From: Takakia lepidozioides
Taxonomy: Eukaryota > Plantae > Bryophyta
Direction of reading: 5' to 3'
Assembly: GCA_030704615.1 (NCBI GenBank)
Contig: CM060731.1
Span: 84,134,001-84,198,000, forward strand
Length of the DNA: 64,000 nt
Shown here: positions 4,390 through 33,811 of the stretch, piece after piece
Layout: each line of letters opens with the position of its first letter
Position numbering within the stretch: the first letter of the stretch is position 1
Position numbers and translations under genes: made by a program
Notes under the pieces: model-generated
Seen by the model: only the letters and a program-made list of their open reading frames with translations
Told to the model about the DNA's origin: nothing
Databases searched by the model: none

Positions 4390-4558
4390 GATCTACTGAT
4401 CAAACAATAGAAGGAGCGCATGTAGGAAACAGAGGGGAGGTGGACCCGCCATACGAATACTCCAACGCCTGCAAGCACAAACGTAGGTTCCCCACATCCG
4501 AGCACTCGCTGACTTCCCACTTCAAAAACTAGCCAAACCCAGAAGCGTTTCGTGGGGG

Positions 4559-10894: not shown

Positions 10895-13800
10895 CTACCC
10901 ATGTGTTGTATCCCGCTGCAAAAGAGTATCGACCTCATTGAAACTCATAGTGGCCTGGTGAATGAAGTTGTCACGTTTGGGATCGCAAACCATCCTCTTC
11001 AAAAATATGAAATACAAATGTTTGCAGGGTATGAATTTACCTCTCTTGCCCAAACTGGTTGATAGCATATTCACAAAATCAGGACATGTGCAATTGGGGA
11101 AATTGGAAACCGTGATGTCGTAGGTCCTGTCATGAACAGCAGATGTGGAAGTGATGATTGTGAATACCCGACCATATCCTGGATCGGGTACTTCCGTGGT
11201 GCTTCCAACACGAGCTTGGAGCATTCTTGCGGACTCCACTTTGCCAAAGTGTTCAGCGGTTGGAGGGAAACGCCGAACGAGCTTTCCATCTCGTTTGGTT
11301 GGCCACAAGTCAGGATTTGCCGGGGGGACCCGGGAGGACGCAGAAGTAGTAGCACATGCATGGAGTTGGGGTTGTCTCGCAAGGGAAAAACCTGCCTCCT
11401 CCAGCATTTCAATCTCCTGAAAGCTGAGATGTGTTCCCACCTTCACGGATCAAACGGTTGGAGGAGATGGCTTCATCACTACGGAAGGACGCACAGTTCC
11501 ATGCACACATCTGGCACAATCATCTGCGCAAAACCAGAACTTGTGGTTCTTGGCTTCTGGTTGACCGTATGGACGCATCAAGCCCGTGAAAGTCGGAGCA
11601 GGAGTTCGGGCACCACCTTTGGATATAGATGAAGTGCACTTCTCGAAATTAGTTGCCCTGATCGCTGTACATTTCACACGAGACCCTACACTTGTGCGTT
11701 CTATGTGCCAAATGTGGTCGGGGCATGCGGACTCAAACACATCAAGGGGGTTGTTTCTCTCCTGCACAAGTTCAGTGGCACTGTTTGATGCTGGAGCTTG
11801 CCGTCGTGTTGGAGGTTCCTCCACAATGGAGGTTCCGGACATGGAGCTGTCATGCAGGGGAACACGAGGCTTCGAGAAGTTATCACGGTCTGCCCTGTGG
11901 GAATCTGAATCCGAACTAGGTGGAGTGTTCAATTTCCTCTTACAGGAGCCGAATCTCTCCTCCCCTTCGAGATGTGGAACTCTAGAAACAAGTGGCGTTC
12001 CCTGGGCATACATGCTCACCGCCCGTGCTATCTTGATTGGATCCCCAGATCTGTTTGCAGCACGCAACATCAACTCCCATTTGTCCGGACCCTTGCCACC
12101 AACCCCACCTCGTAAGAAATCACGGTATCGGGTTTGTTGTTGCAAGGCACGTATCAAATCATCTGTTGTTGCCACATACAAATCCCGACCTCGTTTCCCA
12201 GACTGCTGCAACCATGCGTTGTGCACAGTTTCTGCCAAATTGCAAGATGGCATGTCCGCCATTTCCTCAATGGACATGTTCTGCAAAGTGCAGAACCACA
12301 CTTCAAAACAGTGAACAGAAAACAACATAAAGAAAGCGAGGACACAATAAAATGGAAAGCAAATGTATGAAAAAGCAATAAATATCAGCCTCGTACCAAT
12401 GGCATGGCTGCTCCCCACTGTCTATACCGGAAGTGCCAAAATGCCAGCCAATCTTCCAATGCTCTCATACTCTCAAGTGATGCAGCTCCAGAAGAGAACC
12501 ACCAGGCACGAATTGTCTGGAACAAAGTGTCCGCCTCCTTCATTGTTCTAGCATCTTTGTACTTTTGCACAATTTACGGTGCTGAGTCTGCATCTCTGGT
12601 TTGATGTCCGACTTTGTATGTTTTTCCAGAGATTGTGTCCAATGGAATAGACATGCACGCTCTCTTCCTCGCATTGGAACTTTTGGGTCGCCCGATCCGA
12701 AGACAATACGAACAGCATTGAAATTTGCTTGAGCACTATCCGCCATGAAACCTGCAAAATTTGGAGATGGCAGCCCATGGCAGCCCATGACACGTATCAG
12801 GGAATTCCACATGAGCTTCTGGGATTCCGTATCCTCGGATTGCATGTCACAAACTGCAATTGTCATAACTCGTTGGTACACTGGATCGTAGACATGACAA
12901 GCCATTGTTGTCCAATCCTTCACTCGTTTCACATGATCAAACATAAGAAAACAGTTCTGCAAGTCCCCAGTCTTCTGCATCCGCTTCACGAGGTAACCCC
13001 ACTGCCCTCCCCAACAGTCGACATTTTGAAAAGAAAAACTTTGATGGCACCTTGACCTGGGAATACATTGTCCTGGATGTAATTGTACTTGCTCACTCGT
13101 TTCAATTCCAAAATATTGTCTATGAAGCCTCTGATCCCAGAGCCCATTCTCAATGCATTGATCTGATGCCGAATGTTCGGTGAACTTAAAGTGGAGAAAT
13201 GATCCATGACCAGGTCCAATGCTGCACCATCAAGTTTAGTCCCCAAAGAATCCTCTTCACTCAAAATATGGCTTTCCAAGAAGGACTTGCTTGCGCCAAG
13301 AGCAATTGCAGATGTTGTTGCGGATGGGTTTCTCCCGAACTCCTGTTTAATCAACCTCGATACTGTCTCAACACTCTCCCTGTAATCCCCTTCGAGACAG
13401 GATGGTTATGGAATCCGAAATGCACACAAGCTCTTGTCATTGTTTTCAAACGGTGGACAACATAGTACATTCTTGCTCCGCAGAGCGCCAAGCAGGATGG
13501 CACAAGTTTGCAGAATTTGCAGACGAAAGTGTTTGCCGGTGGAGGGGCAGTCCCAGGCTGAAATGGATTTTCCGCCAGACCCTCCCATTCGCTTTGATTA
13601 TGAACTCCAGACTGAAGAAAGTGTCTGCAATTCAAATTATCACACCTAAGGTGTCCATTGCAAACTGTCCTCCTGAAAACAAGCTTGTCATCATTCTGAA
13701 TATTGGATGTTTTTGTTCTGCACCACGGGTGCCCGTCGTGTTTCTTGTCCATTCCATGCATCATGATTGTTACACCTCCAACTCGCGGAGGAGGAGGCAG

Positions 13801-14830
13801 CTCGAATAGGATATCGCCATCAAAAGTCTCCGGCAAGAACTTCACAGGCATCTGCTTCAAAGATTCCCAATCAATTCCCCGCAACTCACTTTTGAATCCA
13901 GCCATTCCTCCCATCGCCCGCAATTTTGGAATGCCACTACAAATCTCTTCTTCATCAGCTTTTCCAACCACAGTAGGAAGGACTGGATTTGGAATTTCAC
14001 TTATGTCATCATCGGAAGAATCCGAAAGCTCAACGATTGGAGTGGAGGACGTCTGTTCTTTTTTCACCACCACCTCCCTCTTGTCTTCAACGACCGAAGC
14101 AGCAGTCCCGGGCGTCACATATGACCCAAGGGACTTTTGCCGAGGCTCTCCAAGTACTCTTTATCGACCAGGACGCACTATCCACTAGCTGATATGAGCC
14201 GTCTCATCACGATTTTGGAAAGAGTATTTCAACAACTTCCCTTTAAGATCGTACACCTCTTTCTCCAAAAAGATGGAGCAATTCTGCAGCTGAAAACGGG
14301 TAGCCAAGACATGTTCCAGAACAATTGTAAATCCATTGTCAAGGACTTCCTGGGAGAACGGCACTGGTTTGTCGTCAGAGAAGAACTCCGCTTCAGAGGA
14401 AGCCATCTTCCTTCCTCGCGTACGTTTGTACCTTGCTATCGCAGATCTAGTGTAAATCGGTTTACTGATGTCTCCAGAACACAGTTGAAGAATGAGCAGA
14501 GAATATGGCGGAGGAAGCTCAGACAACGACTGTGCATATTATGTTATTCTTTCCAGATATGCAGCCGTCCATTTTAATTACTTTTCTTGTGGGCCCAGTG
14601 GTCAGAGTATCCCTAGGATCAGTGTCGGCAGCTGTTAAACCGTTAACCTGAACCTCATCAATAAACCCAATAACAAAGCCGACTTCCTGGAAGCATGCCA
14701 CAGGATCTGGGGATGGGATTGCAGATTAAGTAAATGTATCTTTATACTACTACCAATGATCATGCGCACCTGGAAAGTTCCAAATGTGAAACGAATGTGG
14801 GGTTTGGCTAACAAGGATGACCGTGTATGA
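10895..14830 (-). pseudogene. Mutator-superfamily DDE transposase with GCM/WRKY-like Zn domain and C-terminal SWIM finger (copy 1)
   Basis: DGHPW..CNGHLRCDNLNC..CKFC..C...CGA..HFGFHNHP at 13351-14118. MULE catalytic pattern: FDHVKR (D1), FMADSAQAN (D2), CLFHW (CxxH), NLAETVH (E). SWIM finger CTCPDF..PCKHLYF at 10895-11446. Several frameshifts and an intron near 12286-12393. The start codon is uncertain. Confidence 0.85.
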
Positions 14831-15261: not shown

Positions 15262-18200
15262 ATGACGAGGCGTCGTTTGTTGGAGAACACAGGGCCAAGG
15301 CAGCAGGTGAACGCGGAGACTGATTCAGAAGAGCAGACGGAGACTGAGGCAGCGGCTGTGACACAGTCTGCGATAAGAGTGCGCCAGCCTGTGGAGGCAG
15401 AGATGATTCGCAGGGACACTGAAGGAGGTGGAAGCACGCGGAACGCCGAACCGGGAGAAGGTCCAAAAACCCTAGAGCAGACAGAAATTCCGGCAGATGT
15501 GAGAGGGAAGAGGAAAGCTGCAGAAGGGGATCCAATTTCAAAACCTAAGAAGGCGCCAGTAAGTTTTATCTAACTTACATTTCATTGTTGAAGATATGCG
15601 TAGAGATTGAGTGGAATGTCCCAGACAGGGATTGTCGCTACCAACCATCACAAAGGTGATTTGCTTTCTACTCCTCTGCTAAGGGTTTACCGCACAATGA
15701 GTGGGTGACTATCGGTACAGTCATTCACTGTTGTTCAGATCATATAGTCTGTCTGATTGCCTTTCAAGGAGTCCTTCCTCTTCCCTTCTTTAGCAGGAAC
15801 TACTGAATTGCGAGCGTCGTTAACGCCATTCAATTCTCCTCATGAGATTTATATACCTATGTGTTTGAAGAGAGAGTGAGGGTCGGCATACCGTCAATCA
15901 TCGTTGTTCAGACCATACAGTTTGTCTGATTGCCTTTCAAGCAGTCCTTCCTCTTCCCATGCTGGCGACGGTAATCACAGTGGAGTCAATCTGAATAATC
16001 TGCACTTACTGTCCGCCCTAAACTATACTGAATGTCGTTGCCGCCAATCACTTGCACATAGATGTCATTACACAACACCGATCCGGCAGGTCGTTATCTT
16101 TTGTGATTGTCGTTAACGCCGTTTGCTATCGCTCTCGCTTTTGTTTTGAATACGGCAATATCAGCTTTGCTTGTGTAGATTGTGCTGAATTGTTTCACAC
16201 CATTCATAGTGAGTTTCTTTGAGACAGAGTGATGGTCGTTACCGCCATTCACTATTTGCAAATTAGTCAGTCAGAACTGAATGGCATCGTGCAGAAAACT
16301 ATGAGGTCGAAGCCTACAAGATCAGAGGGGAAAGGATCTGGAGATGGGGACGAGTCCGCAAAAAGCTCAGAGAATACATATGAAGCAGATGAATCTGAAG
16401 TGCACTACCTTGACAAGGTGAAAGAACTCATGTCATTCCAGAAGGTAAACTCTCAGGAGGTTATAAAAGACATGCTCGTATCTGGAGGGCGTCTGGACAT
16501 CCCTCTGTGCCGGATGATATCAATGCCTATTGTGCGTCCTCCTCTTTCCCATGACATAACAAAATTGGAAAGTGATTTTGTGCATGGATATAGACTTGGT
16601 GCACAAGTTTTTTATGTGTCACTGACGGATATAAATGGGAAAAGCACATTAGTGTCTCCAGAGATCAGTGATAACTGGGATGAGTGCTAGAAAGATGCCA
16701 ATGAGGAGTTTGAGCTGGGCCTCATGATGGGAAAGAACACCCAGCAATTCTGCAACCACATGTTCTGCGTCTGGGACGACAACCACCGATTGCTGGCATG
16801 GATGGGATACATTCAGAAACACCATGCGAAAGACAAAGACAAGCATGTTGTTGTGGAGGCAATGGTTTTGGATCCTGGAAACGACATCGCTAGGCTTCTT
16901 ACAGCTATGCACGACGTGAACAAGTAAGTCATCCAGGAGATTTCATTCCTTCTGTAGTGTCTTATTAATCCTCAAAAAACAGTGTTAAGGAATGCAATGT
17001 TTTCAATGTTTTTGCAGATCGACAGAGAAATCGCATGTGACAACAAGCTTGGTTCACACACTATTCCGAATTCAGAGGATTGGTTTGATGAAGCTGGATG
17101 ATTTTCGGACAGTACTACCACCCAATATCATCAAGAAGTGCGAAACAGGAAGAGCTGCAGGCACTTGGTATTCTTTGACACGAGAGGTGTTTCTGGAGTA
17201 CATGTATGCGGTAAGCCCGAGTCTGTACTCTGTTTACTTTTCGAATACATGTTTGTTGCCCCTTCGGAGCTAATTACTACTTGAATCAATGCAGCAAGAA
17301 CTGGCAGAGGCAGCTGAGAAGGGAAAATCCGAATATTACCGCACTACACCAGAGGAACTAAGGACATCAAAAGGTGTGGAAGCTACAATAAAGAAGGAGT
17401 TTGAAATGCGAAGAACCAAATTGATGTCCGCCTTTGGAAAGCAGCTTAGAATAGTAGATCCTGGACTTGGTCCTGAGTTCCTTCAGCAGATCAAAACACA
17501 TTATGACAAGCATGTGCATCCGGAGATGCAGCAGGAGAAATTGCACCGGCTGGCCATATCGATGGTCGACCACAAACAAAAATAAGGTGGCTGGAGATAT
17601 GGAACTCAGATCAAACAGTAAAGGACTTGAATCAGTTCCCAAAGAGCACCATACAGCCTGGCACAAAGGTGGAAGGAATCAGTGATTTGGTGTTTGATAA
17701 CTGGCTCCACAAGGCTACATTTTGGAGTCAGGTGTGTATTCAAACATGCCGTTTTCTTCTCTTCAAGTATGCGATGAGTATCTTATTTGCAATTCTGACA
17801 AATATATTATTTGCAGCTCGAAAAGCGCGCCGTCATTGTGCTGGATCAGACTTTGAAGGACCTGAACATTTCGATTGTTTCCCCTCCCCAAATGTCATTG
17901 GAGGCATACATAAGGAAGTGGAGAGGTCTCACCTGGAGATACTGTTTTTTCCGGGAGTTCTCCAAAGATGGTAACATTTTACGGTCCAACGACTTTGACA
18001 GTCAGGTTGGAGGAGAGTGGGCCATGATGCGAGTTGTGTACAGGTGCAATGTCATACTTGAAACTCTACTGCTTTTTTTGGGAAAAAATGTGGCTTCATA
18101 AGGATTGCAATCATAGATCCAGATTGAATGTCGTTGACGACATTCACTTCTTTGTCTGAGTCATTCTTAAGCAAGTATATGAATTCACCTGGTTAGGATC

Positions 18201-19255
18201 TAAGGGTGTAATTATAGTGTCCCTGATTAGAATTGATAATGTCCTTGAATGGCATTGACGACATTCACATCCGGAGTTGTTGAGAGGTCCTCAGAGTTAT
18301 AATTTTTTGTAATGTCCATAGAGGTTATAGTGAGGGTTCCTCACTTCATATTGCTGAATGTCAATGTAGACATTCAGTTGTTCTGCATTGTTTTTGCCTC
18401 TTGCGAGGAATCTGGAGGCTTGATAAGCTCTGTTATGAGAAATCCAAAGTGAATGTCGTTGATGACATTCACTTGTGTGTCTGTATTATTCAACAGCGAC
18501 AATTTGAATTTACATGGATTGGGAGCTAAGTAATTGGTTCCTTGTTGGTATTTTGTGAATGGCGTTGACGCCATTCACATACAGTGTTGTTGTGAGGTCC
18601 TCAGTGATATGTTCGTTATGAATGTGCATTGAGTTTTCGTGGAGGGTTCCTTACTCGAGTTATGATTTCCATCCTGTGATTTTGCTTCATTTGAGGAATA
18701 ATTAGGCTTGATTAGTGAATGTCGTTGACGACATTCACTTCTATGTCTGTGTCATTCCAAAACGATAGTTTGCATTCATCTGGATTAGGGTGTATTTACA
18801 GTATCATTGAATGGAATGTTTTGAATGGCGTTGATGACATTCACATCTGGAGCATTCGTGTGGTCCTGAAAGGTCCTTGGAGCAGTTCTCAGAGCCATTT
18901 CAATCTATGTTTTTTTCATTCTGTTCTACTTGCATCTTACTCACTGAGCGCTTTTGTGGGTTGGGATTCATCTCATTTTTTCAGGTACACGAAATATGTG
19001 CTTATGGAAGGAAATCACCTGAGCGGAATTCCAGACTATCTTGACATGTGGTCGGACCCTGCAAACGATCCAACCATGTATACTGTAGGGATATTGAAGG
19101 ACTGGAGTCCTTCTCACTTCAGAGACTGTGGGTGGTACCTTGATTGCCCACCGGAGCACACGACCTTTCAAGAACAGCATATGAAATACTTGAACAATAA
19201 CGCTGAGATGCTGGCGCCTTTGACTGACGAAGAGTACCAACGAAACATAAAGGAG
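15262..19255 (+). pseudogene. ParB-like-domain cargo gene, copy 1, 3'-truncated
   Basis: Approximate GT-AG exons 15262-15558, 16295-16923, 17019-17210, 17296-17731, 17817-18043 and 18985-19255. Contains IPLCRMISMPIVRP..DITKLESDFVHGY and WDDNHRLLAW (16775-16789). Colinear with 28732-31400 with the same intron positions. Has in-frame stops and ends abruptly in Gypsy integrase. Confidence 0.8.
18125..18843. repeat. Intronic array of 7 palindromes, consensus TGAATG(T/G)CGTTGACG(A/C)CATTCA
   Basis: Copies near 18125, 18246, 18354 (degenerate), 18447, 18554, 18714 and 18822. More degenerate copies lie in the first intron (~15814, 16029, 16104, 16229). Confidence 0.9.
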
Positions 19256-20290
19256 TGGCAGGGGGCCATTTTGGAGAAGAGACTACCAGTAGGAAGATAC
19301 TACTTGCCAGTTACTGGTGGCCTACCTTGTTCAAAGATGTGCACAAGTATTGTAAAACTTGTGATGAGTGTCAGAGGCTAGGACCATTGCAGAGGTCTGG
19401 AAAGATAGCTTTGCATCCTACAATGCCTACTGAACCATTTCAGAAATGGGGACTGGACTTTGTTGGACCAATAAACCCGCCAGCCAAGAATACACAGAAC
19501 AAGTATATAATAGCTATTGATTATACTACGAAGTGGGTGGAAGCTAAAGCTCTGGGGGACAACACAGCTAAGTCCACAGCCAGGTTCCTGTATGAGAACA
19601 TACTTACACGGTTTGGCTGTCCCCTGGAATTTATCAGTGATCAGGGAAGTCACTTCATCAATGAGACCATAAAACTCTTGACTAAGGAGTTCATGATTGT
19701 GCATAGGAAAAGTACAACCTATTACCCACAAGGTAATGGACAGGCAGAGGCTACCAACAAAATACTATGTACCATCTTGGCTAAAATAGTCAATGCAAAC
19801 AGAACAGACTGGGATACAAAGCTACTGACAGCTTTGTGGTCATACAGGACTTCATATAAAGTCACCACTAAGTATACACCATTCCAATTAGTTTATGGTA
19901 TGGAAGCTTTACTTCCAGTGGAGTTTTTATTACCTACTATGAGAACTGAATGGGGAAGAAGAATGGAATTAAAAGATTCAATTAAGGTCAGGAAACATGA
20001 ATTATACCATATGGAGGAAGTACAAGCTGATGCAGCTGACAACATGACGAGAATACAGATGAAAAGGAAGGATCAGTTTGATGAAGGGAAGTTGAAGACT
20101 TTCAAAACATGAGATTTGGTTTGTGGTTGCAGAAGAAAGGAAAGATTAAGGCTTCTAAGCTTAAATCGCCATGGAAGGGACCTTATGTCATACAAAAGAT
20201 GTATGATAACAACACGGCCATGTTACAAACCATTAACAAAGAAATGTTGGGCAGGGTCAATGCCAACAAGTTGAAAGGATACAGTGGTAT
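19256..20290 (+). pseudogene. Gypsy integrase
   Basis: GGHFG..YWWPTLFKDV..CKTCDECQR Zn finger; WGLDFVGP, FISDQG and GQAEATN D-D-E core; WKGPY (GPY/F motif) after a frameshift near 20110. Confidence 0.93.
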
Positions 20291-20427
20291 CCATGACAAG
20301 CCATTGAGGCACGATTTGCATATAGAACCACACGAGCAAATACAGGCTGTTCCAGTAATACCAACGAAGCATAGAATACTTGTCGTTAAACCGGTGAGGA
20401 GAGGAAAACATAGATGTTTAAATAGCT

Positions 20428-20705
20428 ATCACAGCCCAACACAGGGTCACACAGCCCATCACAGCCCAACACAGGGTCACACAGCCCATCACCGCCCAAC
20501 ACAGGGTCACACAGCCCATCACAGCCCAACACAGGGTCACACAGCCCATCATAGCCCAACACAGGGTCACACAGCCCATCACAGCCCAACACAGGGTCAC
20601 ACAGCCTATCACAGCCCAGCACAATGTCACACAGTCGCGCACAGCCTAGCACAGGGCGGCACAGCCTGTCACAGCCTCACACAGCCAATCAGAATTACAC
20701 AGTCC
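20428..20705 (+). repeat. 30-bp tandem repeat (ATCACAGCCCAACACAGGGTCACACAGCCC) x6 plus degenerate tail
   Basis: Directly visible. The unit is built from 10-bp CACAG subunits. Confidence 0.95.
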
Positions 20706-21305
20706 ATAGGATTAGTGACAGGTGGACGAAAGAAAACATCAGGGAAATGGCCGGCGGAAGAAAGGGCGGAAGTCAGTTTAAAAGTGGACGCGTGGAAGTC
20801 AGGCCGTGACGCACAGCTGAGAAGGAGCTGCAAGAACAAGTGTCATCAAGAAAAAGGACAGGAGTGGCCGTCAAAGTACCTACCTACTACGTCAAAGAGG
20901 ATGGATGGCGGGCCCATGGAAAATCCACTAAAGAAAATTAATTCTAAAATCCAGTCACAGCGGTTACAGCCAATCATGAAGCAGGAGCAACTTCAAGAAA
21001 GTAAAAAGGTTCTGAGCGTAAGAGTCGGCGTCGTTCCAAGTAACGGGCGTCTCGACGGGACAGACAATCAATGCGATAGTTTTGAAGCTATGAGGGAACT
21101 AGCAGATTATACGCTCGCGATACTACTCACGCAGTGGCGAGGAAACAGAAGAACAGAGAGTAACTTTTCTCTTGATCAATGCTTGCAAGCCCCGCAGGTT
21201 TACAGGACACTACCCATAGCATTTTGTGGCAATCATACGTTTGTGCTTTGTGCTCTGCAGGCATTACTTCAGTTGTTACAGCCACAGCCTTACGGTTTCT
21301 CTAAA

Positions 21306-24300
21306 ATGAAGAGAGTAAGAGGGATGGAGGACATCAAGGTGAAAAGCACCACAATCCTGCAGAAACAGACGATTGTGACGCCATACGCGGTGAAGTTACT
21401 AGAGGAACTGCGATTACAAGGATTGCAAAACAAGGATTGGACATTGCACCATCGGAAGTACATGTTAGAATTCTTGCAGAACTTTGACCCAAAGACAGGA
21501 GCCACAATGGTGAAGGGAGTTGAATTAGAACTTACTCCCTTATACCTACAGCAATTGTTTTCATTACCAGCAGGTCAGGTTCATGTGGACGAGCACAGGG
21601 CTAGATTGCAGATGAAAGATTTGTTTGAAGAAGGGAGTTTCTTTAAAACTCAAGGCTATGCTTGTACCAAAGCAATGTACCCAGGGCTCAAGGAGGTAGG
21701 CCAGATATTGAACGTTCTGTTTGCCATGAAACAGAACCAGCAGTATTTGAGCAGATCCTTCACAGAGGAAATACTCAAAGGCCTGAGAGGAGAAGAGGTA
21801 GCATGGGAGAACATCATGTACAACGGACTGGTAGAGGAGATGAAAAGATTGCAGGGAACTGCCGCTAAATCTCCTATCATAGTATCTGGGCCAGTCATTG
21901 CACAAATCATCCTAGACTCATGCGTACTTGATGCGAGAGAAAGGAAGGAAATGGGAGTGTTTGAAATAACAACCACTACCATAGAAGAGCAAGGTTCTTC
22001 ACAGGGTGAAGGAGGATTGGCAGAGCATCAACAGCCCAAAAGACAGAGGAAAGGGATCACGTTGGAAGCCAAACCATTAGCTACAAGGCAGCAGGAGGAA
22101 GAAGTTACTCAAGCTCTTGTCCAGGAGAGGGTACAACAGCACAGAGATCAAGGGTTACAAACAACACAACCTGTGGAGAGGGAACAGGAAGTCAATTCAG
22201 TATCACAGCCATCACAGCCAGGTGAACGGCTTGCCAAAGAGTTACCACAAGTGGTCCATGCGGTTCCTCCACAAATAATAGATTTGGAAACAGAAGGGTT
22301 AGATATTCCAACTACAGAGCAAGTGGTGGCAGAGATTGAGAGAGGTGATCTTCTCTATGAAGACTCTAGTTTGCTCAGAGAGAGAGTGGAGCCAGAGGTC
22401 CAAAATCTGTCCAGTGAACTTCCTGATGTGCAGGTAATACCCCCACCAGCACCGCAAGTTCCAGAAGAGGAACATCAGGACACAGCAGCATCTGGGAGAA
22501 ATGAGGAAATTGAGAAGGAGGATCTGGTGGAGCAGTGGCCTGAGTGGTTTGTGAGGCATCATCCTATGGATGAGAGGGGTGAACAGCAGCATGTTAACCA
22601 TGATGGGCCTCAGCAGGCTATGCTGATGAACTCCATAAGCTGAACCCTCAATTTGTTGGGAACTTACATGAAGTCACATGTTCCAGTGACTCAGTTGGAA
22701 GTTCTGAAGGAGGAACTCAGAAAAGAGTTCGAAAATCGGTTGGCAACCGAGTGTGTTAACAAAGTTGAGATGGAAGTGCATCTGCAGTTGCAACAGGAGT
22801 TGGGGGAAACAAAGAATGCTTTGCAATTTGCTAAGCAGCAACTGATTGAGGGGGGTCTGGAGCAAGACCATCTGCAGGAGATACACGAGCAGCAATTATT
22901 CCAATTGCAGAACAAGCATGAGGATGAGATGCAAGGACTAAAGGAACAACAGGCAGAGTTGGAGGTAGTACATCAAAGGATGACGGTGCAATGTGCCACC
23001 CTCACAAATGTTCTAGAGCAAGCCACAACAGAAGCCAACCAGCAGAGGGAGCGATGTGTAAGGGCAGAAACGGAGGTAGTGGAGCAAGCCAAATTCATTG
23101 TGGACCTCAAAGATACAATATGTCACAATGAGGGTGCTTTACAGCAATACAAACAGGTTGAGGCTAACCAGGAGAAGTACATTGTGGAGTTACAACAGAC
23201 CCTTATGTCGAATAGGAATCAACTCTCTGTAGCTAACAAGGCAGCGAGGGAAGCCAATAATCTGGCTGCAGCTTATGCCAATTTAGTTGAACCTCATGAG
23301 AAGCGCATGCAAGGATTGCAACAGCAGTTAGATGCCTACAGACTCAAGGAGGAGCAGAGTCTCAGAGATGTTACACAAGACAGAGTGGATGACCAACTTT
23401 TAAAAGTATGGTTAGCACAAGGGCCAGTGGAAGGGAAAGCACCGAGAAAACTCACCCAGGGGGAGATGAATGACCTGAGGCTGCAAGTGCAGAATATTGC
23501 CACCACTACTATAGACAATGTCTATAGTAGAATAGGAGAGCTCCAAGAGGATGTGGATACACTGCAGACTCAAGTGGAGGACTTGAGTTCAAACATAGAC
23601 CAAAGGCTCATGATTCTTGAAGAACATCTCATGGAGGCGTATTTGAGGGCCAGAACTCTAGTTTTCGGGTCTTCTTCGCAAGAAGTGCAGGGGATGCCAA
23701 TGGTGGAAACACCAATAGAACCAGTTTCACAGCAGGTGGCTGTACAGGTTATTGAATCTCCTATGACAGCAGTTGCACGGCCTGAGGTATGGGGAAATGC
23801 TGCTTTCAACCACCCAAGACTCATGCACGGGAATACAACCGAGCAATGATCATGCCCTTCAATGAAATTCCAAATAGCTTGGATTTGGCTTGGAATCAAT
23901 TTGGTCCTCCACAATCCTTTCCACACTACTACCAAATAATGCGCATTTGGTTGCCAGTGGCCACTCGGACTAAGATTCTGGCAATGAATCAGCTCATTGA
24001 GGATCATCATTTTTCAAGGTATTGGTCTGAGGCAGGCACCATGTTGAAGGAGTTAATAGCTTTCCAGGTTGTTCATGGGCACATTCACACCAAAACAAAG
24101 GAAGTAGCGAGTTTGGTCATGGGATGTGGAATTTATTATACTGCTTGTTTCATTGCACGTTACCACATTGAGCAGCAGAAGATGCAGTCCAGATTTCTGA
24201 CTTATTCCACTACAGATCATTGGACCTTACCTGTGGTGCCGCATCATACGTATTTATATGATGTGAAAATCATGTTACAGAGGGATTCACAACTCCGTTC

Positions 24301-24853
24301 ATGGTTTAACATGGCCTGGAACAACTTGAGCAACGAAAAATGATATATTGACGACATTTTTAATAAGGAGCAAACAGCTTGGCAATACCTATACTGCTCC
24401 AAAGTTACTGGCACACCTCTCACCTATACTGAGAAGGAATTGTTGAAGTTCAATCAACTTGCTTTCAACAGGTTACACAACGTTGTGAAGCTTAAGGTTC
24501 CTGACATGGTGGGGCCACACTGTATGCCAATTTTCATTCCAGAGAAACCAAGAAAGGCAAGAAAACCAAAAAACTGCAGGACTGAAGCAGATTCGGACAC
24601 AACAACTGAAACTTCAGAACAAACTCTTGACATATGGGAGGAATATGATCAAGCACTGCACGACAAGAAACAACGGGGCCACACCAGAGCCATTACAGCC
24701 GGTTCAGTCAAAGGGCAACAAATCAGGTTCAAGTACAGCTCAAGCATCTCCAGCAAGCAGTCATAGAACTCGGGCACGTACAGAGAGCCCTCCACTGCAC
24801 TCTCACAAACAGACAGGACCACGTTCACAAAGATTTACTGATCCTAAGCAGTA
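21306..24853 (+). pseudogene. Retrotransposon extra ORF (ORF3-like) with plant-transposon-protein-like N-terminus and long coiled coil
   Basis: LEFLQNFDPKTGATMVKGVELELTPLYLQQLFSLP resembles the extra-ORF domain of Athila/Tat-like elements. ORFs 20109-22643 and 22653-23849 are in one frame, and 23789-24343 and 24440-24766 are in another, so this reads as one broken ORF. E/Q/L-rich heptads at 22653-23650. Confidence 0.6.
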
Positions 24854-24892
24854 AACCGTGAGGACACGGCTTTTTGAGAGGGGAAGGGGTAA

Positions 24893-25587
24893 TGTTAGGA
24901 GGCAGTCTGGGACTTAGGCATTTTTATGGGTTCTGTGGAGTCTGGGACTTAGACACTTCTATGGGTTCTGAGGGGTACCCTTAATTTTTTGAGATAGCCC
25001 GTCACAGCCAGTCACAGCCCGACACAGCCCGAAACAGCCGTCACAGTCTAACACAGTCGCACAGTCAGTCACAGCTGTCACAGTCATAGGGAACGGTTAT
25101 CATGACAGGGAACGACTGTGGGGAACAACATCTGCCTGGGAACATGTAATTCACGGAGGACGGTTAGTGAAGGAAAATGGTTAGAACAGGGGGGAAGGAG
25201 ATAAAGCGGGCAGCGGAGACGGGAGGGGACTTTTTGGGGATGGAGATCACTGCTGGGGGACTTTAGCCACGGAGATCACTCCTGGGGAAGGACTAAGATC
25301 GAAGGAAGGGAAGCTGGCGAGGAGGAAGGAGATACTATAGGACAGAGTTAGTACGAGATGAAGGATTACTTAGAGGGATAGGTTAGAGAAGTTAGGACAT
25401 CAGCATGTATCCGATTATGATTAATCTGATTCTCATCCGATACAAACACCTTGTGTTGAGAGACTTGAGTGAAGCTGTGTATGAATGAAATCAGGGGGCC
25501 CAAGAAGCAATCTGACGCTTAAAAAGATACCTGATCATGATAAACAGGGAATATAAACTGATAAGGAATATAATTGGAAACCCAACA
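24893..25587 (+). repeat. 3' LTR of the Gypsy element
   Basis: TGTTAGG...CCCAACA ends; starts 3 nt after the PPT. The right end is inferred from terminal symmetry only. Confidence 0.7.
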
Positions 25588-25738
25588 ATGATTCACTAGC
25601 TGCAGGTCATGACTGATTGTTTCACGCGGGCTGAATGCTTAGAGATATCCAACTCTTCTATCTTGGAGTTTCCCCCTCGGATAGCGAAGGGATGGGTGAG
25701 TAAAAGCCGTGTGACAGTGCAGCTGAGCACGGCCTGAC

Positions 25739-27462
25739 ATGACAACAATTAAACATCATACTGAGACAAGAGAAACAGTCAAGGACACAGTCATGCATAT
25801 GGCAACAAGTAATCACCCTTCAAACATGATTGAAAACATACATGAGGTCAAAGGCAATTCGAAATCAGCGAAGGGTACTGCAGCTAAGAGTTGGAGTGTC
25901 TTTAAAGACAAAGGGAAGAGAAAGAAACACTTCACTGGCAATGAGGGGAGGCTGTGGAAACGCCAAGAGGATGGCACAAATGATAGAAATAACAGGGTTG
26001 GGCAAAGGATCCTGCAGGAAGAAGAAAGGGTATGTCAGCATGGAAAGGACGTGCAGCTCATTCCAATGGAAAGGGGAACATTCGTGCAGTTAAGTACAAC
26101 AACCAATTGCCCTTCAATTATGGCTGGAATTTTCCAAAAGGCGAGGGATAATAAGGAGGAGAATAGGCCTGATACAGTGAGTTGCTTAGGGGCAATGAAA
26201 CAACTTTCTTTTGAAGAAATCAGCAATTACACAAGCAAGGGAAGGAAACTATAGTCCTTGTATGTGAAAGGAGGGTAATACGGTGCAAGTGCAAAAGGAA
26301 GGGAGGCACAAGGAGGTCACTTACTGCTAATTGGGATATGCTAGAGATCACAAGAAGGGAACAGGGGTACCCAGTAAGCAGAAGAGCAGCTGAGCAGGTG
26401 TGGGATGATGTTCGGGCTGCAAACACAACGGCGAACCAAGCAATTGTCACTACAACTAAAGATACGAGTAAGTGGAGCAACATGATGGCAGCATGGAATA
26501 TCTGCCGAGGGATGCTGGTTGGCAAGGAGCTGCGACATATGGTGAATGAGGAGAGAGACCTGTCCCGAATCAACATGGTTCAAACACAATCTGAAAGATG
26601 TAAAGAAAAGGTGCATTTGAAGGCAGAAGGGTATTATTTTCAGACTAGTGAAGAGCCTAATTACACAAGGGAAGAACGAGAAGGCAAGCAAGGAAAAATC
26701 TCACAAGCGGAAATGCAACCCTAAACGGCGAAAGTAGAACATACACGACGAGCACTTGAGAACATACCCATGAAACGTCAAGCATGAGCACCACGTGCAG
26801 TGAAGGGAAGAATGTATGGGGGGCAGCAGTTATAACTGAACTACAAATGCGTTTGCTGCACTCAGTGACGAAAGAATACGGAGGAGCGGCAAAACTGCCA
26901 TATGTGTTTATCTATGGACATTGGACACAAAAGAAAGGATGTTGGGCGCACCTACGATTCATGGAAAACCAAAAGACAACAGGTGTCGATAGATTGCGGA
27001 GCTAGTGGAGCTCAGGACATTCTGCCTGAGTATGTGAGACTTCCTACAGACAATAAGGGAAATTTTTTCACAGTGCGTCTAATTGAAGACTGCTCTTCAG
27101 CAGTCTGCTTCAACTGCAGCCAAATGCTCCACATTAAGGTGGATTGCCCAACAGGAAAGAGAAAGCTTTCTCCAGCATCCAAGCTGCCACTGGGCAGCCA
27201 AACTAGAGGGTCAAATGGCAGGGTCTCCCTCCAGTGCAACAACAACAATCAAGTGCTCAATCCCAAGATCTCCGTTCTTCAGCCCAAACTCTTCCCCCCA
27301 GTGATCACTTGCAAGTTGCGGGCAGTAGAGTTGCCTTCCAACGCCATATCAGCAATCAGGACCCTATGCAACTCGAAGCGGCATCCACCCCTCGCAGGCA
27401 GCCACTTGGCAAAAAAGATAGCAGCAGAGCTGCTGCACAAATCAAACCCTAAACTCCATTAG
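25739..27462 (+). pseudogene. Degenerate LINE ORF1-like remnant with zinc knuckle
   Basis: LPEYVRLP..VCFNCSQMLHIKVDCP (CX2CX4HX4C) at ~27020-27150. Upstream ORFs are fragmented. Confidence 0.45.
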
Positions 27463-28096
27463 CACAAAAAGCTATGCCTTCTATGGTGGTCCACTCTCCA
27501 AAATTCTTACCAGTATTGCAAACAATCCATCTTTTGCAAAAACTTGCCTCAGGCAGGCTTCATTTCCAGGCCAGGACCTGAAAGGGTGCTCAGCCTTGGA
27601 ATCCACGGAAGCGTCATTAGCAACATGTGTCACGCCAATCATTTATAGGAAAGGAAATAGGCCTAATGTGCTCATTACCTCTGATGACTGGGAATCTAGT
27701 GCCCTCACCACATTGTCCTACCATGCCCTGTGGAGAGGAGGGGAGAGGAGAGGAGGGAAAAGAGAAAGCCCGCGGAAGGGAAGGCGAATGCGGGAGAGGA
27801 GGAGAAAGAAAAGAGAAAGCCGCGGGAGATCAGGGGAGAAAGATCGTGGAGCGAAAAAAAAACAAAAAACAAACAAAACGACGATCCCACGATTTGATCC
27901 CAGGATGCATCGCGGCGAAATCGCCATTTTTACCACTACACTATCCCTTAAAACTCAACAACCCCCTCCTGTAAAATTATATTTAAGGTGTTTTAAACCC
28001 CCCTCTGTATGTATAATGTTGTACATGGGGGGGTTTAAAATACCCCCTCCTGTGCACGCACGTGGCTGGTACATTTAATGAGGAGTGCACCCCCCG

Positions 28097-28614
28097 GGGC
28101 TGCAGTCCAGTGGCGTTTTGATGTAGTTTTTTTGAACGGTCAAAACTCATCAAACAACCTTGCGTTGACGCAAGGTTGTTTGAGAGTCCACCAAATGTCT
28201 CTTTTTGCCTTCACACCCACAGCTGCAACCCCAAGAAACAACCTTGCGTCAACGCAAGGTTGATTTGGGCTGCAGTCCAGTATCGTTTTGATGTAGTTTT
28301 TTTTAACGTTTGAAGCTCTTCAAACTACCTTGCGTTGACGCAAGGTAGTTTGAGAGTCCTGCCAATGTCTATTTTTGCCTTCAATCCCACAGTTGCAAGC
28401 CCCACAAACAACCTTGCGTCAACGCAAGGTTGATTTGGGCTGCAGTCCTCTGTCCTTCTGTATGGTTTTTTTGAACAGCTGAAGCTCATCAAACAACCTT
28501 GCGTTGACGCGAGGTAGTTTGAGAGTCCTACCAATGTCTGTTTTTTGCCTTCAATCCCACAATTGCAAGCCCCACAAACAACCTTGCGTCAACGCAAGGT
28601 TGATTTGGGCTGCA
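28097..28614. repeat. 170-bp tandem repeat x3, each unit with two palindromes AACCTTGCGT(TG/CA)ACGCAAGGTT
   Basis: Units start with GGGCTGCA at 28097, 28267 and 28437, with a further start at 28607. Palindromes near 28150, 28239, 28320, 28409, 28489 and 28579. Confidence 0.95.
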
Positions 28615-28731
28615 AACCAAGGGTCATTTTGATTTGTCGCAAGGCTGTTTTGGGCCATGCCATTGCATGTTTATCTGCCATTGTGTTCAATACCAGACTT
28701 CATGACTGATAGATCTTTCGGTTTTTTACAG

Positions 28732-31700
28732 AGGAAAATGAAAAGGAAAGAACCTGGCAGAGATGGAGCAAAGGCAGAGTATGAAGATGATGAAGAAGGC
28801 GATGACGAACATTACACAGACAGAGCTGAGGTTGTTATCGGGGGACAGAAGGTGAACTCTTGGAAGGTAATCTTGTCAATGAAAATTCCTGGTGGAGATA
28901 TCCTTATCCCACTGTGCAGAATGATATCGTGCCTGATGTCCGCCCAACATTCGAAACGACATAAGGAAACTCAATAATGATTTTGTGCATGGGTATGTGA
29001 AGGGTTCTGCGGTGTTCTATGTTTCCACAACTGACCCGAAGGGCGAAGAGTGCCCTGTATCAGAAGAGATAGAGCAAGGTTGGGATCCATGTTGGCGTGA
29101 AGTTAACAGGGAGTTTGAGGCCAAACTATCCAAGAAGGCTTCCACGAAAGTTTTCATGCGGAAGATGTTTTTTGTATGGGATGGCAATCACCGGTTGCTT
29201 GCTTGGATGGACTACATATCCGAATTGCACTCTGACGAAAAGGATTGGCACTGGAGCGTCCATTCTATGGTCCTGGATCACAAAGGATGAATCACACAAC
29301 TGCTCACTGCCATGCACGACATCAACAAGTAAGTTTTCCAAAGTTGTTGTGCATTATGTGATTGCATTGCTCTGTTTCTAGTTGTTTTCTTCTTAATTGG
29401 CAACGTGACTGTTCGATGCAGATCAAACAAAACCTCCCACGTAACAACCAACCTCTGCCACACCCTTTTCCGGGTCTAGAAGATCGGTATGATGCCACTG
29501 GAATCGTTTGCGAACGTGTTGAGTCCAAGTCAAATGAAGAGATGCAGGGAGAAGAAGCTCATCACCTGGTATAGCCTGACAAGAGAGGCATTTCTTGACT
29601 ACATGTACACGGTAAAGAAACTTAAACCGAATTGAAATTCAGACTACTTTGTTCCCTCTATTCAATGGATGTGAACTGAAGGATCCTATATTTTGGATTG
29701 TTTGCAGCAAGAGATAGCAAAGACAGGATTGAAGGCAAAGGCCGAATACTACGCCACTCACGCAGAGGAGGAGAGGTCTGTTGTGGGGGTGGCGGAGGCA
29801 ATCCGGTTTGAGATGGATAACCACAGAAAGAACCTGCTGAGTGCGTTTGACAAACAAATCCGCATTGCAGATCCCGGTCTCGGTTCGGAGTTCCTAGAGC
29901 AGGTGAAAGTGCACTACGACAAGTATGAAACTAAACCCGAAATGACTCAAGAGAACTGCATCGCTTGTCCATTTCAATGGTGGACACCGCAACCAAAATC
30001 AGGTGGTTGGAGATTTGGAACTCAGATCCTCTGGTGAAGGACACGTATGGGTTTCCAAGAACAGAGAAAGACCCCAAAACCAATGTCATAAAAGTGGTGA
30101 GCGACCACTCCTTCGACCAATGGCTTCACAAAGCTACATTCTGGAGCCAGGTGAGAGAAACTACCCATTCATTCTTGTAGTCTGCATTTTTCCATAGTTC
30201 CGTGTTGCTTGGCTCTGTAGCCTCACATTTGCCTTTGTTGGGACAGCTGGAGAAGCGTGCTATTGCAGCACTGGGAGAGTCCTTGATTGACTACAAAATC
30301 ACCATGACAACACCCATAATCTCTCCTGACAAATACATTCGGAGATGGAAAGGTGCAATATGGAACAACTGTTTCTTCAGGGAGTTCGAAAGAGAAAGGA
30401 ATCAGTACAGTAACGAGCAAGCTATGAAGCGAGTCTTGTACATGTATCATGTTTCTTCATTGCGTCTGTTCGTGGTTGCGTTTTTCTTCCATGAATCAAT
30501 CTTATGTTCTTACAAGGTTGGTTTGGGACTGCCAATGTCAGGCTATTCTGATCGTCTGCAGTTCCTTTTCCAGTTGCAATTTAACCTTGCATCAACGCAA
30601 GGTTGATTCGGGCTGATGGTTCTGCACTTCATGAACATATTCTTGTTTTTGGAATGCTACTTCTCTAGGCATGTCCCAACCTTGCGTTGACGCAAGGTTG
30701 GATACAGGTCCAGCATAATAGTATTTTTTGAGATTTCTCTGCACGTAGAAGTTCATTTTCCGTTCGTTCTCTTCTTCTCCATTGTCTCCTCGATTCAAAT
30801 TCTGCTTCTCACTATTCATTTTACAGACTCATTTCAACCTTGCGTTAACGCAAGGTTGATTGAGGCTTGATTTTATCTGCACATTTCAGTTATACTTCAA
30901 TGTTTCAGCCTTGCGTTGAAGCAAGGTTATTCATTGCTCATAATAGACCAATTTTGTGTTTTCATTGTTGGTTTTGGCAAATCGTTGGGATGGCTCAAAC
31001 AACCTTGCGTCAACGCAAGGTTGATCGAGGTATTGTGTTTTTCTAGCTTCTTTGTGTCTGATGGACAATGGCCTTCACGAAATTGTTCATTTGGGTGTGT
31101 TTTCCAGGTACATATACCATGTCTTCATTCCCGGCAAGTACCTCAGTGATGAACCAGATTTCATTTTCATGCGGGCGGACCCCACTAAGGACAAGACAAT
31201 GTACACTGCGGGAATTGCGAAAGATTGGGGCAGGGCGCACTTTAGAGACTGTGGCTGTGGACTTGCCAAAACAGGACACACCGTTCGAGGAGGTGGTCAT
31301 GCGCAACTTCAATGACAATGCAACAGCTCTTGCACCACTCAGTGACAAGGAAATTCAGGAGAGAATAATTCAATCCCTCGCAGCAAAGGAGCCGGAGAAA
31401 AGTAGCACTCCCAAACGCAAAGGGAAGGGTGCAGGTGATGGGAAGGGTAAGGGGAAGATTGTGGCTGGGCAGGAACAGGGTGTGCAGGACACCACGGAGC
31501 GTCAGCCCTCTCCAACTCGCAACGACAGGAGAACTCCGAAAACTAAAGAACAGCCTTACGAGGCCAGAGAGCACCCTTCTCGGGTTTTGGGTCAGTATGA
31601 AATTGAGGTAACGAGAGCTTCTTGGCAATGATGGAATCCAGAAAATCCACATTCAAATGAGAGAAATTGAAGACTTAGGACATCCTGGTTTCTTTCCTCA

Positions 31701-32799
31701 CAAAGGTGCCCACACAAAACTTTGTCTGGTGTGTTTTTCAATTTGTTCAAGATTGTGTATGCTCCTAACTAGTCTACTGTTTTTGTTATGTGAAACAAGT
31801 CACCAAAAGACCTGAATGGGTGAATGGAAGCCAGCAAGCGTACGCAACAGACCTGGTGGTGCTGGACATTCCAGATGGTTTGCATGTGCCGGATGTCCTC
31901 CCATCAAACACAACGCCATCATGGAACAAGTCAGATGCCCTTTTCTGGCAGTGGGTTCTTTCCTTCAGCAATAATTTTTTGTCTGATGCAGGAGCACTTC
32001 TTCTTTTGCAGGCAAAAGACATGCTTGCGCGCAGAACCCTTTTCAGTTACATGAAGGCTTCCGGATTTAAGGTCATCCAAACATGGACGTGTATCAACAC
32101 TCTTCCACTTTCCAAGGGAGAGTTCCCAGGACAGAGGGTGAGTTCAGGATGGTGGACTGCCTCTTCTTGTAATTTCATTCGGTTGAGTTCATTAAGCATG
32201 TTCAAAAACTGAATGTTTGGGGGGGGGGGGAATGCAGACTCGGGTGTTCGAGGCTTTATGCTTGGTGAGGATGCGAAAGGACACCCTCCCTCCCGGTATT
32301 GCGGAGTTCCAGTTGAGAGACCTTGCAACACACATCGACCCCACCTGCGAGCCTGTGGGGGACAATGTCCTGTACAATTACGTGGACCCTAGGCGGACCA
32401 TGAAAAGGGCGAATGGTGTCCCTTGGAGAGGTGCTTGGGAGAAATCTCCAGCATTCATGCAGACTCTGGTGGAGAATTGCAGCCGGCATGGGGGGCGGGT
32501 GGTGGACTTGTCTTTGGGAACAGGTGTGCCAGGAGTGCCAAGTCTCCTGCTCTACCGTATCTAATGATTCTTGGTTTTTTAACCATTCGTTCTGTGCATT
32601 TGCAGGTGCAACATTCCATGCCTGTAAGAGCGCCGGTAGACACTTCTTCGGCATGGAGGGGGATGCGGAGCTGTTTTCATGCAAGATTCAACAACTCACC
32701 TCCGGCTCAACATTAGCCCCACACAAAGAAACAGTTTTCGACGAGCGGGAACTTCCAGATGAAGACCTCGACGTGGACTCCGACTTTGAGTGTATGTAA
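28732..32799 (+). pseudogene. ParB/Srx-like domain fused to beta-class amino (N4C/N6A) DNA methyltransferase, cargo copy 2
   Basis: Approximate exons 28732-29328, 29422-29611, 29708-30150, 30246-30443, 31108-31607, ~31800-32137, 32238-32523 and 32606-32799. WDGNHRLLAW at 29180-29194. DLVVLDIPD (motif IV-like) at 31865-31876. After splicing: EKSPAFMQTLVENCSRHGGRVVDLSLGTGATFHACKSAGRHFFGMEGD (motifs X, I, II). Contains frameshifts and stops. Confidence 0.82.
30583..31023. repeat. Intronic array of 5 palindromes AACCTTGCGTYRACGCAAGGTT
   Basis: Copies near 30583, 30676, 30834, 30908 (imperfect) and 31000, inside intron 30444-31107. Confidence 0.92.
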
Positions 32800-33379
32800 G
32801 TCCGGTTTGTTTTGGATGACATGTCGGATTTTACATTATTCAGACCTTCATTTTGTTGCAAAGCATTTCCCTTCCGCGGTCCTGTCTTTCTGCTTACTGG
32901 TCTTGCAACTTTGGGAATCTTTGCAGGACACCAAAAACGAGGAGAAGCATCCCTTTCTTTGCTAACCCGGAATTATTCCCGAGCCCACCTGCCCCCCTGC
33001 AGTTGCCATGCTATGCGGAGGCTGCCGCTAGGGAGTTTACTCTCTGCGACTCTCCCCCTCTAGTTTGCTTCAATCGTGTAGAAAAGGTGGACAGCAGGGC
33101 TAGGATCTTTATGGACATTAGTGCGTCAGAGTCCGGTGCTACCACAAGTTCCAGTGCATAGACATTTTCCGATTGGGTCCACCTGTTGGGGAATATCTAG
33201 GGAATCAATTGTGAGGAGATTGCTTCTCTTGCTTCAACTGCGTGCCTCCTTCCCAACATTGTCTACATAAGACATTTTCTGGACATAAAATTTTTCATCT
33301 TCATTTGCAAGTCCATCATACAATCTCTGTGGGTCCACAATACTTCCAGTCTTTACACATACGCACGTAAATTGTTCAT

Positions 33380-33595
33380 GCATCCAAAACATAAGTCCAT
33401 CCATCAACTGCCCGAAATTCTACCATTCCAAATTTGTCACTCCGTCATTCATCCAGTGTTCCAGCATATATCATCCATCATTCGCCCCACACTCAGCCAT
33501 CATGAATGTAACATCCAACCAACATTCATCCACCATCCATCCAACATTTTTTATCCATCCGCCATTCATCCAATGTTCATCCAGCTTCACATCTA
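33380..33595 (+). repeat. Degenerate (CATC/CCAT)-rich simple repeat
   Basis: Dense CATCC/ATTCATCC motifs. Confidence 0.6.
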
Positions 33596-33689
33596 GGTAC
33601 GCATTACATTTTCACTCGTTCCCAAGGGAATAGGTCCCCTGGGTTATCACCGTCCGTGGTTGTGGGCCCCTACACCCTCTGGTGTGAGC

Positions 33690-33790
33690 ATCTTTCCGCT
33701 CACGGATTGGCATCTTCTCGCTCACGTATCTTCCCGCTCACGCGAGCCGCTCACGGACCAGCATCCCCCAACTTGTTTCCAATCAATGAC
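33690..33790. mobile_element. Probable cargo-side terminus of a family-A Mutator-like element
   Basis: Four CGCTCACG motifs (33698-33755), the reverse complement of the CGTGAGCG motifs at 10319 onward. Unrelated LINE sequence follows. Confidence 0.55.
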
Positions 33791-33811
33791 ATGGGGGAGG
33801 ACATCTTGGAT

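Follow-up and report, generated by a model that had tools for sequence, protein, structure and literature searches.

Subfamily-specific palindromes in a moss transposon accessory gene as putative docking sites for its own ParB/methyltransferase-fold product

A 64,000-nt stretch of Takakia lepidozioides DNA (contig CM060731.1; hereafter the window, whose coordinates are used here and in the first-pass annotation of the same sequence) contains two copies of a transposon accessory gene, the cargo gene. Both copies carry short palindromes in two places, upstream of an exon encoding a ParB-like domain and in an intron further downstream, and the locus raises the question of what these palindromes are for and what reads them. 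It was initially proposed that each subfamily has its own address code co-evolving with its protein, with an invariant core as methylation target and the arms as specificity determinant. The palindromes are conserved subfamily-specific words in the accessory gene, and we find it somewhat probable that they are duplex docking sites for its own ParB/methyltransferase-fold product, with a likely role in anti-silencing.

The palindromes are constrained in both cargo copies

The 22-bp palindrome of cargo copy 2 (AACCTTGCGTYRACGCAAGGTT) has 7 exact matches in the window and 11 with up to 2 mismatches, the tolerance at which the previously reported count of eleven holds, and none was found elsewhere in the window even at 4 mismatches. 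Six of these sites start upstream of the ParB-like exon (28156, 28240, 28326, 28410, 28495 and 28580), in a tandem array with two palindromes per unit, in alternating orientation, that ends about 100 bp before the exon acceptor; the other five start in the intron following the exon encoding RVLY (30583, 30678, 30836, 30907 and 31001; zone 30583–31022). The reported arrangement, with six copy-2 sites in a 170-bp array and five in the intron, was thus confirmed. As to the same two locations in copy 1, its four upstream sites (15811–16251) have 2 to 4 or more mismatches, are far weaker than its seven intronic sites (18125–18843) and form no clean tandem array.

The sequence CGTYRACG, described as common to both window copies, occurs 14 times in the window against 1.05 expected, and all 14 occurrences lie inside the two cargo copies. 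The centres of the copy-2 sites read TTGA in five cases, TCAA in five and TTAA in one; both orientations are thus equally used, which fits duplex reading. The outer CpGs are intact in 20 of 22 cases, and the array is otherwise CpG-poor (observed/expected ratio 0.2). The reported covariation of the extended 16-bp arms was also confirmed, with the sites at 28150–28183 and 28320–28353 differing by one compensatory pair, and the site at 28495 is a half-converted hybrid in which the left and right states are unpaired.

Variable columns are depleted within the sites. In the copy-2 array they account for 3 of 44 columns inside the sites versus 29 of 127 outside (p 0.023), and in the copy-1 intronic repeats for 4 of 44 versus 132 of 219 (p 1e-10). 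We rejected the youth of the repeats as the cause of site identity; the carrier repeats diverge at 60% of columns while the sites stay constant. This constraint is stronger functional evidence than the correlation between arms and protein tree described below.

A site grammar shared across the family

The best 80 of 203 metagenome matches were resolved into 43 distinct related loci. Across these relatives, the sites share a grammar consisting of a 7-bp arm, CG-N-CG-N-CG and a second 7-bp arm. Strict three-CpG sites numbered 56 upstream (21 loci) and 24 in introns (9 loci), with none in the body of the ParB exon and 4 in 250 kb elsewhere. A looser pattern (7-bp arms, YR-N4-YR) gave 57 sites in 72.6 kb of upstream sequence versus a shuffle mean of 5.6; the intron zone (52.6 kb) had 34, versus 5.0 after shuffling. 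The core centre, which was left free in the search, was CG, CA or TG in 96 of the 105 cores from relatives, and GTYRAC was found in none of them. The shared element is therefore the arm-CG-N-CG-N-CG-arm grammar, with CpG spacing alone in common, and the notion of an invariant GTYRAC core had to be abandoned. On this comparison, the TTGA and TCAA centres of the window are best read as two versions of a deaminated TCGA common to both window subfamilies, and GTYRAC as a decayed CGTCGACG. The CpGs of sites in old copies have undergone heavy C>T decay, with all three affected, which shows that the sites do become methylated by the host in time and at some stage carried 5-methylcytosine (5mC).

Site length, CpG frame and the two positions are kept across proteins that are only about 40% identical. 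Upstream and intronic sites have about 30–33 bp in common, which indicates copying between the two zones. In addition to both window types, relatives have arms such as CAACTTT, CTACTTT, GTACTTT, CTTCTCT and AAGCATT. For the four arm types that recur in more than one locus, the right arms complement the left ones even when they are read with no palindrome filter applied. Within loci, the distances between upstream and intronic arms were 0, 0, 0, 2 and 0, against a between-locus mean of 1.95 (6/120 permutations). In other subfamilies, too, arrays occupy these two zones and have arms of their own, in agreement with the proposed subfamily-own address code.

Arm distance was correlated with distance in the protein tree (Mantel rho 0.52, p 0.0006, 25 loci), also without the three most distant loci (rho 0.26, p 0.003, 22 loci), and clades mostly share one arm type. 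Arm type therefore tracks protein phylogeny, as predicted, and neither of the two outcomes named beforehand as refuting the proposal was seen. However, such agreement is expected from linkage alone, because sites and protein share one tree, and co-evolution of arms and protein, the further step in that proposal, found no support in the analysis of same-arm, non-sister clades presented below.

Two further palindrome sets were noted. A second class (4-bp arm, CG-AGCT-CG-AGCT-CG in decayed form, arm) is represented by 22 sites in 9 of the 43 loci (L018, L023, L025, L030, L031, L033, L036, L041 and L048), 700–1700 bp upstream of the WDGNH motif; none was found in the intron zone, in 250 kb elsewhere or in the window. 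In addition, a palindrome of the main grammar, GGAAATG-CGGCGCCG-CATTTCC, is present at 59616–59637 and 63922–63943, flanking a third MULE-like transposase gene, and decayed relatives of it are found at 35684–35800, in an internally deleted derivative.

The cargo gene and its product

Copy 2 is a spliced pseudogene (28732 to about 32800) interrupted by stops and frameshifts, and the two window copies are dead relics of two subfamilies. The first exon of copy 2 has 435 relatives at E<=0.001 (50% clusters), including an unbroken one that is 85% identical (P0195). The named relatives among the 120 matches listed belong to Ceratodon, a moss, and Adiantum, a fern, and no named algal protein is among these 120. 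The window cargo exons alone gave no Pfam match and no useful PDB sequence match. A search of viral contigs and prokaryote genomes with one narrow peptide pattern returned no relative, which says little about origin.

A full-length relative from Ceratodon (P0152, 1147 aa) has a ParB/Srx-fold N-terminus and PF01555 at its C-terminus. The structural model of this protein is usable up to residue 505, i.e. short of the methyltransferase domain, and its predicted local distance difference test (pLDDT) score is mostly >90 over residues 200–390. The five best structural rows for the N-terminus, KorB (Z 8.0, root-mean-square deviation 2.6, 93 aligned), PadC (7.9), Pnob8 ParB (6.9), SerK and Srx, are all ParB/Srx-fold proteins, with modest Z scores; the top Foldseek rows were Noc, Srx, KorB and ParB, none of them at E<=0.001. 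The Box II GxxR phosphate-binding motif is present (G335 N336 H337 R338), and both this motif and an Asn downstream of it show conservation of at least 90% over 114 rows. The modelled N-terminus can thus be placed in the ParB/Srx fold superfamily, on modest scores with concordant top rows. The middle region was modelled as all-helical (pLDDT 75), with no clear structural match (best Z 6.7) and scores of 0.81 or less against Atlas clusters. Fungal DUF3723 proteins make up the Atlas clusters closest to the ParB-like region (P0004 residues 60–315; score 0.96).

Spliced contigs from close relatives of the window cargo were found in two sequencing runs from two studies (X6 and X7, whose RNA status is guessed). 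One such contig skips the palindrome-bearing intron of copy 1 (18040>18982, GT..AG), the intron at 30151–30247 (GT..AG) is spliced out in X7, and the intron ahead of the last methyltransferase exon is removed in both runs (joint 32524>32614). Close relatives of the cargo gene therefore appear to be transcribed and spliced; no RNA data were listed for the exact window stretch.

A methyltransferase domain with degenerate motifs

PF01555 matches residues 903–1119 of the Ceratodon protein (E 4.9e-7, 30.4 bits against a cut-off of 26.7), and the window exons align to this domain with the motif order IV...X-I kept. A weak match to DpnA (E 0.053) was the only one between this protein and PDB sequences, and the methyltransferase exon had no match in a word-index protein search. 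Motif IV is DIPD in the window, DIPE in locus L001, DTPF in Ceratodon and DVPF or DLPF in the fern. The canonical [DNS]PP[YFW] was found in none of 29 aligned rows, which are mostly decayed copies; five of them have D-x-P-aromatic at this position, and the window and L001 are acidic there. The first Asp and the Pro of motif IV, the downstream PxW and an acidic residue after the S-adenosylmethionine (SAM)-binding motif are retained. The canonical methyltransferase motif I is FxGxG; that of the cargo is DLxxSTG-like.

Methylation is doubtful because the catalytic motif is non-canonical (DIPD), and a domain that still writes a methyl mark seems to us rather improbable. In this clade, we think it likelier that the domain, with little or no enzymatic activity, serves for base or SAM binding than that it writes GTYRAC marks. 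The suggestion that the core is a methylation target is weakened by this family-wide feature of motif IV, and GTYRAC, with its HincII readout, was rejected as the target.

It is nevertheless conceivable that the same docking sites are served by an active, non-canonical amino-methyltransferase writing N4-methylcytosine (4mC) or N6-methyladenine (6mA) at or around them, with 4mC at the CpGs blocking 5mC; this amounts to the initial proposal with the CpG frame in place of GTYRAC as target. The Pfam match above cut-off across the whole domain, the retained residues, the splicing of these exons and the good preservation of the site CpGs would all be accommodated, and a protein of Ectocarpus is predicted to make 4mC or 6mA (PMC12477816; here and below, statements on cited papers refer to the accessible part of each). 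However, motifs IV and I both depart from the canonical form, the known plant and rotifer 4mC enzymes carry SPPY in the parts of the literature covered, and the C>T decay of old copies indicates that the CpGs were once 5mC-marked. We therefore regard an active enzyme as unlikely.

What reads the palindromes

The fixed length, the two-fold symmetry, the equal use of both orientations and the location in a ParB-like gene together suggest that the palindromes are putative duplex docking sites for the gene product. A two-fold symmetric cargo protein would read two 9-bp half-sites (arm plus CG), the arms providing family specificity. A nucleoside triphosphate (NTP) switch of the ParB type could then allow loading or spreading over the cargo gene and the promoter of the adjacent transposase gene. 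In the way that VANC acts for VANDAL, this might keep the element expressed by shielding it from host CpG methylation or by counteracting that methylation. By this analogy, loading followed by spreading to fend off CpG methylation is the most likely function. Within a site, new arms may be propagated by hairpin-templated correction, and short conversions may carry them from one array to the other. We propose with less assurance, as a possibility for mosses and ferns, a ParB-parS-like NTP-gated sliding clamp that would load at family-coded, CpG-framed intronic palindromes, sense their methylation state and drag the repurposed methyltransferase domain along to protect or mark the element.

Several observations weigh against docking by the cargo protein. 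Two same-arm, non-sister pairs had 13/491 and 7/466 private shared residues, within the 6–25 of comparable pairs, so that no covariation of residues with arms emerged. At least two sites survive in 18 of the 30 loci for which sufficient upstream DNA is available and in only 6 of the 26 with sufficient downstream DNA. Structure comparison recognised no helix-turn-helix (HTH) or other known DNA-binding fold in the middle domain, and anti-silencing is argued by analogy alone. The AGCT class implies more than one reader and may serve a second, and one of the GGAAATG-arm sites is downstream, near the element end, where it would be equally usable by the transposase.

The last point bears on whether the transposase or another element protein, rather than the cargo protein, binds the palindromes as internal regulatory sites. 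Transposases can activate their own copies sequence-specifically (10.64898/2026.08.24.746577), a site of the same grammar flanks the third transposase gene on both sides, and linkage alone would make the arms follow the cargo tree. Nevertheless, the copy-1 motif was absent from its transposase and terminal region, that of L054 is likewise confined to the cargo gene, the element ends carry repeats of their own, unlike the 22-bp palindromes, and red-algal inverted-repeat arrays also adjoin a ParB-like gene (10.1101/2025.02.11.637652). Binding by the transposase or another element protein instead of the cargo protein is quite unlikely.

We give little credence to pre-mRNA hairpins or small-RNA sources controlling cargo splicing or expression: every site is intronic or just 5' of an acceptor and forms a stable stem-loop (z -3.8 to -8.3), but any palindrome folds, the two orientations make different RNA loops and yet are equally used, recognition of the duplex accounts better for the constant length of 22 bp and the CpG spacing, and an Rfam scan of 15000–34000 gave no match. 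A neutral by-product, with template switching perfecting quasi-palindromes and duplication spreading them without any reader, is the least probable explanation, because although the compensatory change at 28320, the hybrid at 28495 and the stretch common to upstream and intronic sites fit hairpin-templated repair and copying, it conflicts with the conservation of length, frame and positions across divergent proteins and with the constancy of sites in diverging repeats.

The element and its setting

The window is rich in transposons, with a CACTA element, long terminal repeat (LTR) elements and long interspersed nuclear element (LINE) pieces, and it also has one AP2 gene. The features of the system are collected in Table 1. 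The transposase gene opposite copy 1 has a D..CxFH motif, which we take to be MULE-type; its SWIM match (E 0.0023) is below the Pfam cut-off, and a Pfam scan found no MULE family in it, even at E 10. The same head-to-head arrangement, with a transposase upstream of the cargo, was seen in 6 of the 43 related loci, and no such transposase was found in the available DNA of the other 37, many of which are short or decayed. The retroelement and other repeats interrupt cargo copy 1 and stand in place of the 5' part of copy 2. The CGCTCACG repeats are likely the right subterminal region of the element.

Table 1. Coordinates of the cargo copies, their palindromes and associated features in the window.
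Feature	Position	Strand	Remarks
MULE-like transposase gene	10898..14400	-	SWIM finger and D..CxFH motif; head-to-head with cargo copy 1
Cargo copy 1	15264..19250	+	broken; truncated by retroelement near 19250
Copy-1 TGAATGT/G-arm palindromes	15811-16251 (four, weak); intron 18044-18985 (seven)		in cargo copy 1
Intervening LTR retroelement and other repeats	19250..28096	+	LTR about 24893-25716; outside the system
Tandem array, 170-bp unit x3.2	28097..28633		TRF, 86% matches
Copy 2 ParB-like exon (VRP..WDGNHR..MHDIN)	28732..29328	+	frameshift near 28935, stop 29288
Copy 2 middle all-helical region	29422..31607	+	exons ~29422-29611 (stop 29477), 29708-30150, 30248-30443, 31108-31607; frameshifts near 29975 and 31241
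Intron after RVLY exon, five palindromes	30444..31107	+	GT..AG read from sequence
Copy 2 beta-class amino-methyltransferase-like exons	31800..32795	+	~31800-32137 (motif IV DIPD), 32238-32523 (EKS..VVDLSLGTG), 32606-32795 (GRHFFGME)
CGCTCACG repeats	33697..33760		mirror of GTGAGCG repeats at 10300-10400
Third MULE-like transposase gene	59890-63500	-	any associated cargo would fall past window end

In contigs of three runs from one sample, multi-copy depth spans about 27840 to 33500, with a summed depth of about 1000–7000 in run X1 (the least-covered contigs listed are near 40); depth is not copy number, and it indicates a multi-copy family. A CACTA terminus at 27934 was rejected for want of a partner repeat near the right end, and a CACTA transposase was rejected as carrier, with 0 matches in the 43 loci.

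Subterminal-like blocks of the GTGAGCG and CATGAGC types were found at 10300–10524, 33697–33760 and 54040–54298 and at 35449–35528 and 59080–59160, and seem to mark the ends of different carrier-element subfamilies. A very high-copy LINE-like 3' fragment (zf-RVT, weak) lies just past the right end of the element, at 33770–34312. On its plus strand, the CACTA/EnSpm element (500–8800) has Transposase_21, DUF4218 and DUF4216; a Transposase_24-like gene is divergent to these. The minus strand bears host-like genes at 44964–45782 and 47901–48491, namely a polyketide-cyclase/START-like exon and an open reading frame (ORF) with an AP2 domain. At 56029–56300, a 46-bp tandem array contains five copies of a 22-bp 9-4-9 palindrome, CGACCGC-CAATACTG-GCGGTCG; more GC-rich palindromes are found at 56324 and 56448, and the ORFs adjoining the array have no Pfam family.

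Comparison with known systems

Algal ParB-like accessory genes and inverted-repeat arrays have already been published, and the land-plant version and its arm code, not found in our searches, are apparently new; the literature search, whose coverage mostly excluded subscription papers and also the algal supplements, found nothing on family-specific arms or on such a system in land plants. Iyer et al. described ParB-HTH-fused methylases in chlorophytes and chytrids, and the accessible part of their paper mentions no moss or fern family (PMC4738411).

The rotifer N4CMT and Marchantia DN4MT1 are likewise bacterial-type beta-class amino-methyltransferases in eukaryotes, but they are host genes with an intact SPPY and, as far as described in the accessible texts, a chromodomain or no extra domain; N4CMT has been linked to silencing (PMC8885841; 10.1101/2021.02.12.428880). 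Bacterial ParB clamps provide the model for loading and spreading (PMC8367383), and phage ParB-N6/N4-methyltransferase fusions exist (10.1101/2025.10.10.680097). ParB-parS, Noc-NBS, KorB-OB and the phage fusions resemble the cargo system in having a ParB fold that bears a GxxR-type motif, sites that are palindromic and fusion to an N6/N4 methyltransferase. By contrast, the cargo is a spliced eukaryotic gene with no ParA, no recognised HTH, 22-bp CpG-framed sites and a degenerate catalytic motif; the nucleotide preference of a ParB is not predictable from sequence. DUF3723 is a conserved cargo of fungal Starships (10.1101/2021.12.13.472469). It is a language-model neighbour, rather than an aligned homologue, of the cargo N-terminus and, like it, eukaryotic mobile-element cargo; DUF3723 proteins may also be ParB-fold self-recognition proteins.

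Closer parallels come from algae. In Ectocarpus, the Sola1-1_Ec32 accessory protein is a ParB-like and N4/N6 methyltransferase fusion of about 1100 aa encoded opposite a DNA transposase, and its authors propose, without a test, that it binds and modifies its own element (PMC12477816). The fusion and its transcription opposite a transposase are alike, but the carrier there is Sola1 in a brown alga and here MULE-like in land plants, and the two are likened by description, not by sequence. In Bostrychia, PAG3/PAG2 of Plavaka elements is a ParB-like accessory gene beside tandem inverted-repeat arrays across families, for which self-binding was also proposed (10.1101/2025.02.11.637652). There, the fusion partner of ParB is a 2-oxoglutarate (2OG) oxygenase, and a separate SET-domain gene provides the methylase, unlike the ParB-methyltransferase fusion of the moss family, and the accessible text describes no site grammar or family-specific arms. 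Features of the algal accessory proteins recur here: a ParB-like gene with a DNA-modifying domain opposite a transposase is found in window copy 1 and in 6 of the 43 loci, and inverted-repeat arrays adjoin the ParB-like gene in the moss family. The algal papers, in the parts accessible, propose self-binding without a target sequence, and the moss family provides candidate sites of defined sequence. Arm variants and protein variants occur naturally in many pairings, and a full-length gene model (M758_1G295400) is available from Ceratodon, a moss whose genome has been sequenced, so that cognate and non-cognate pairs can be compared directly.

VANDAL is singled out in the Bostrychia paper as the one proven case (10.1101/2025.02.11.637652). 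In the Arabidopsis VANDAL/VANC system, motifs specific to each family cluster in introns and tandem repeats, and binding and demethylation are proven (PMC5735166). The likeness extends to the accessory gene, the placement of the motifs and, probably, the Mutator-type carrier. The VANC motifs, however, are non-palindromic words of 8–9 bp rather than 22-bp palindromes, and no VANC-type Pfam family matched the cargo protein, which has the ParB fold and PF01555 and no other Pfam family. If docking by the cargo protein holds, it would show how selfish elements of early-diverging land plants tell self from non-self, a ParB switch would operate on eukaryotic chromatin, and orthogonal protein-site pairs could become available for locus-specific epigenetic work. 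If the sliding clamp also holds, land plants would possess a second, bacterial-derived and re-programmable anti-silencing system, independent of VANC.

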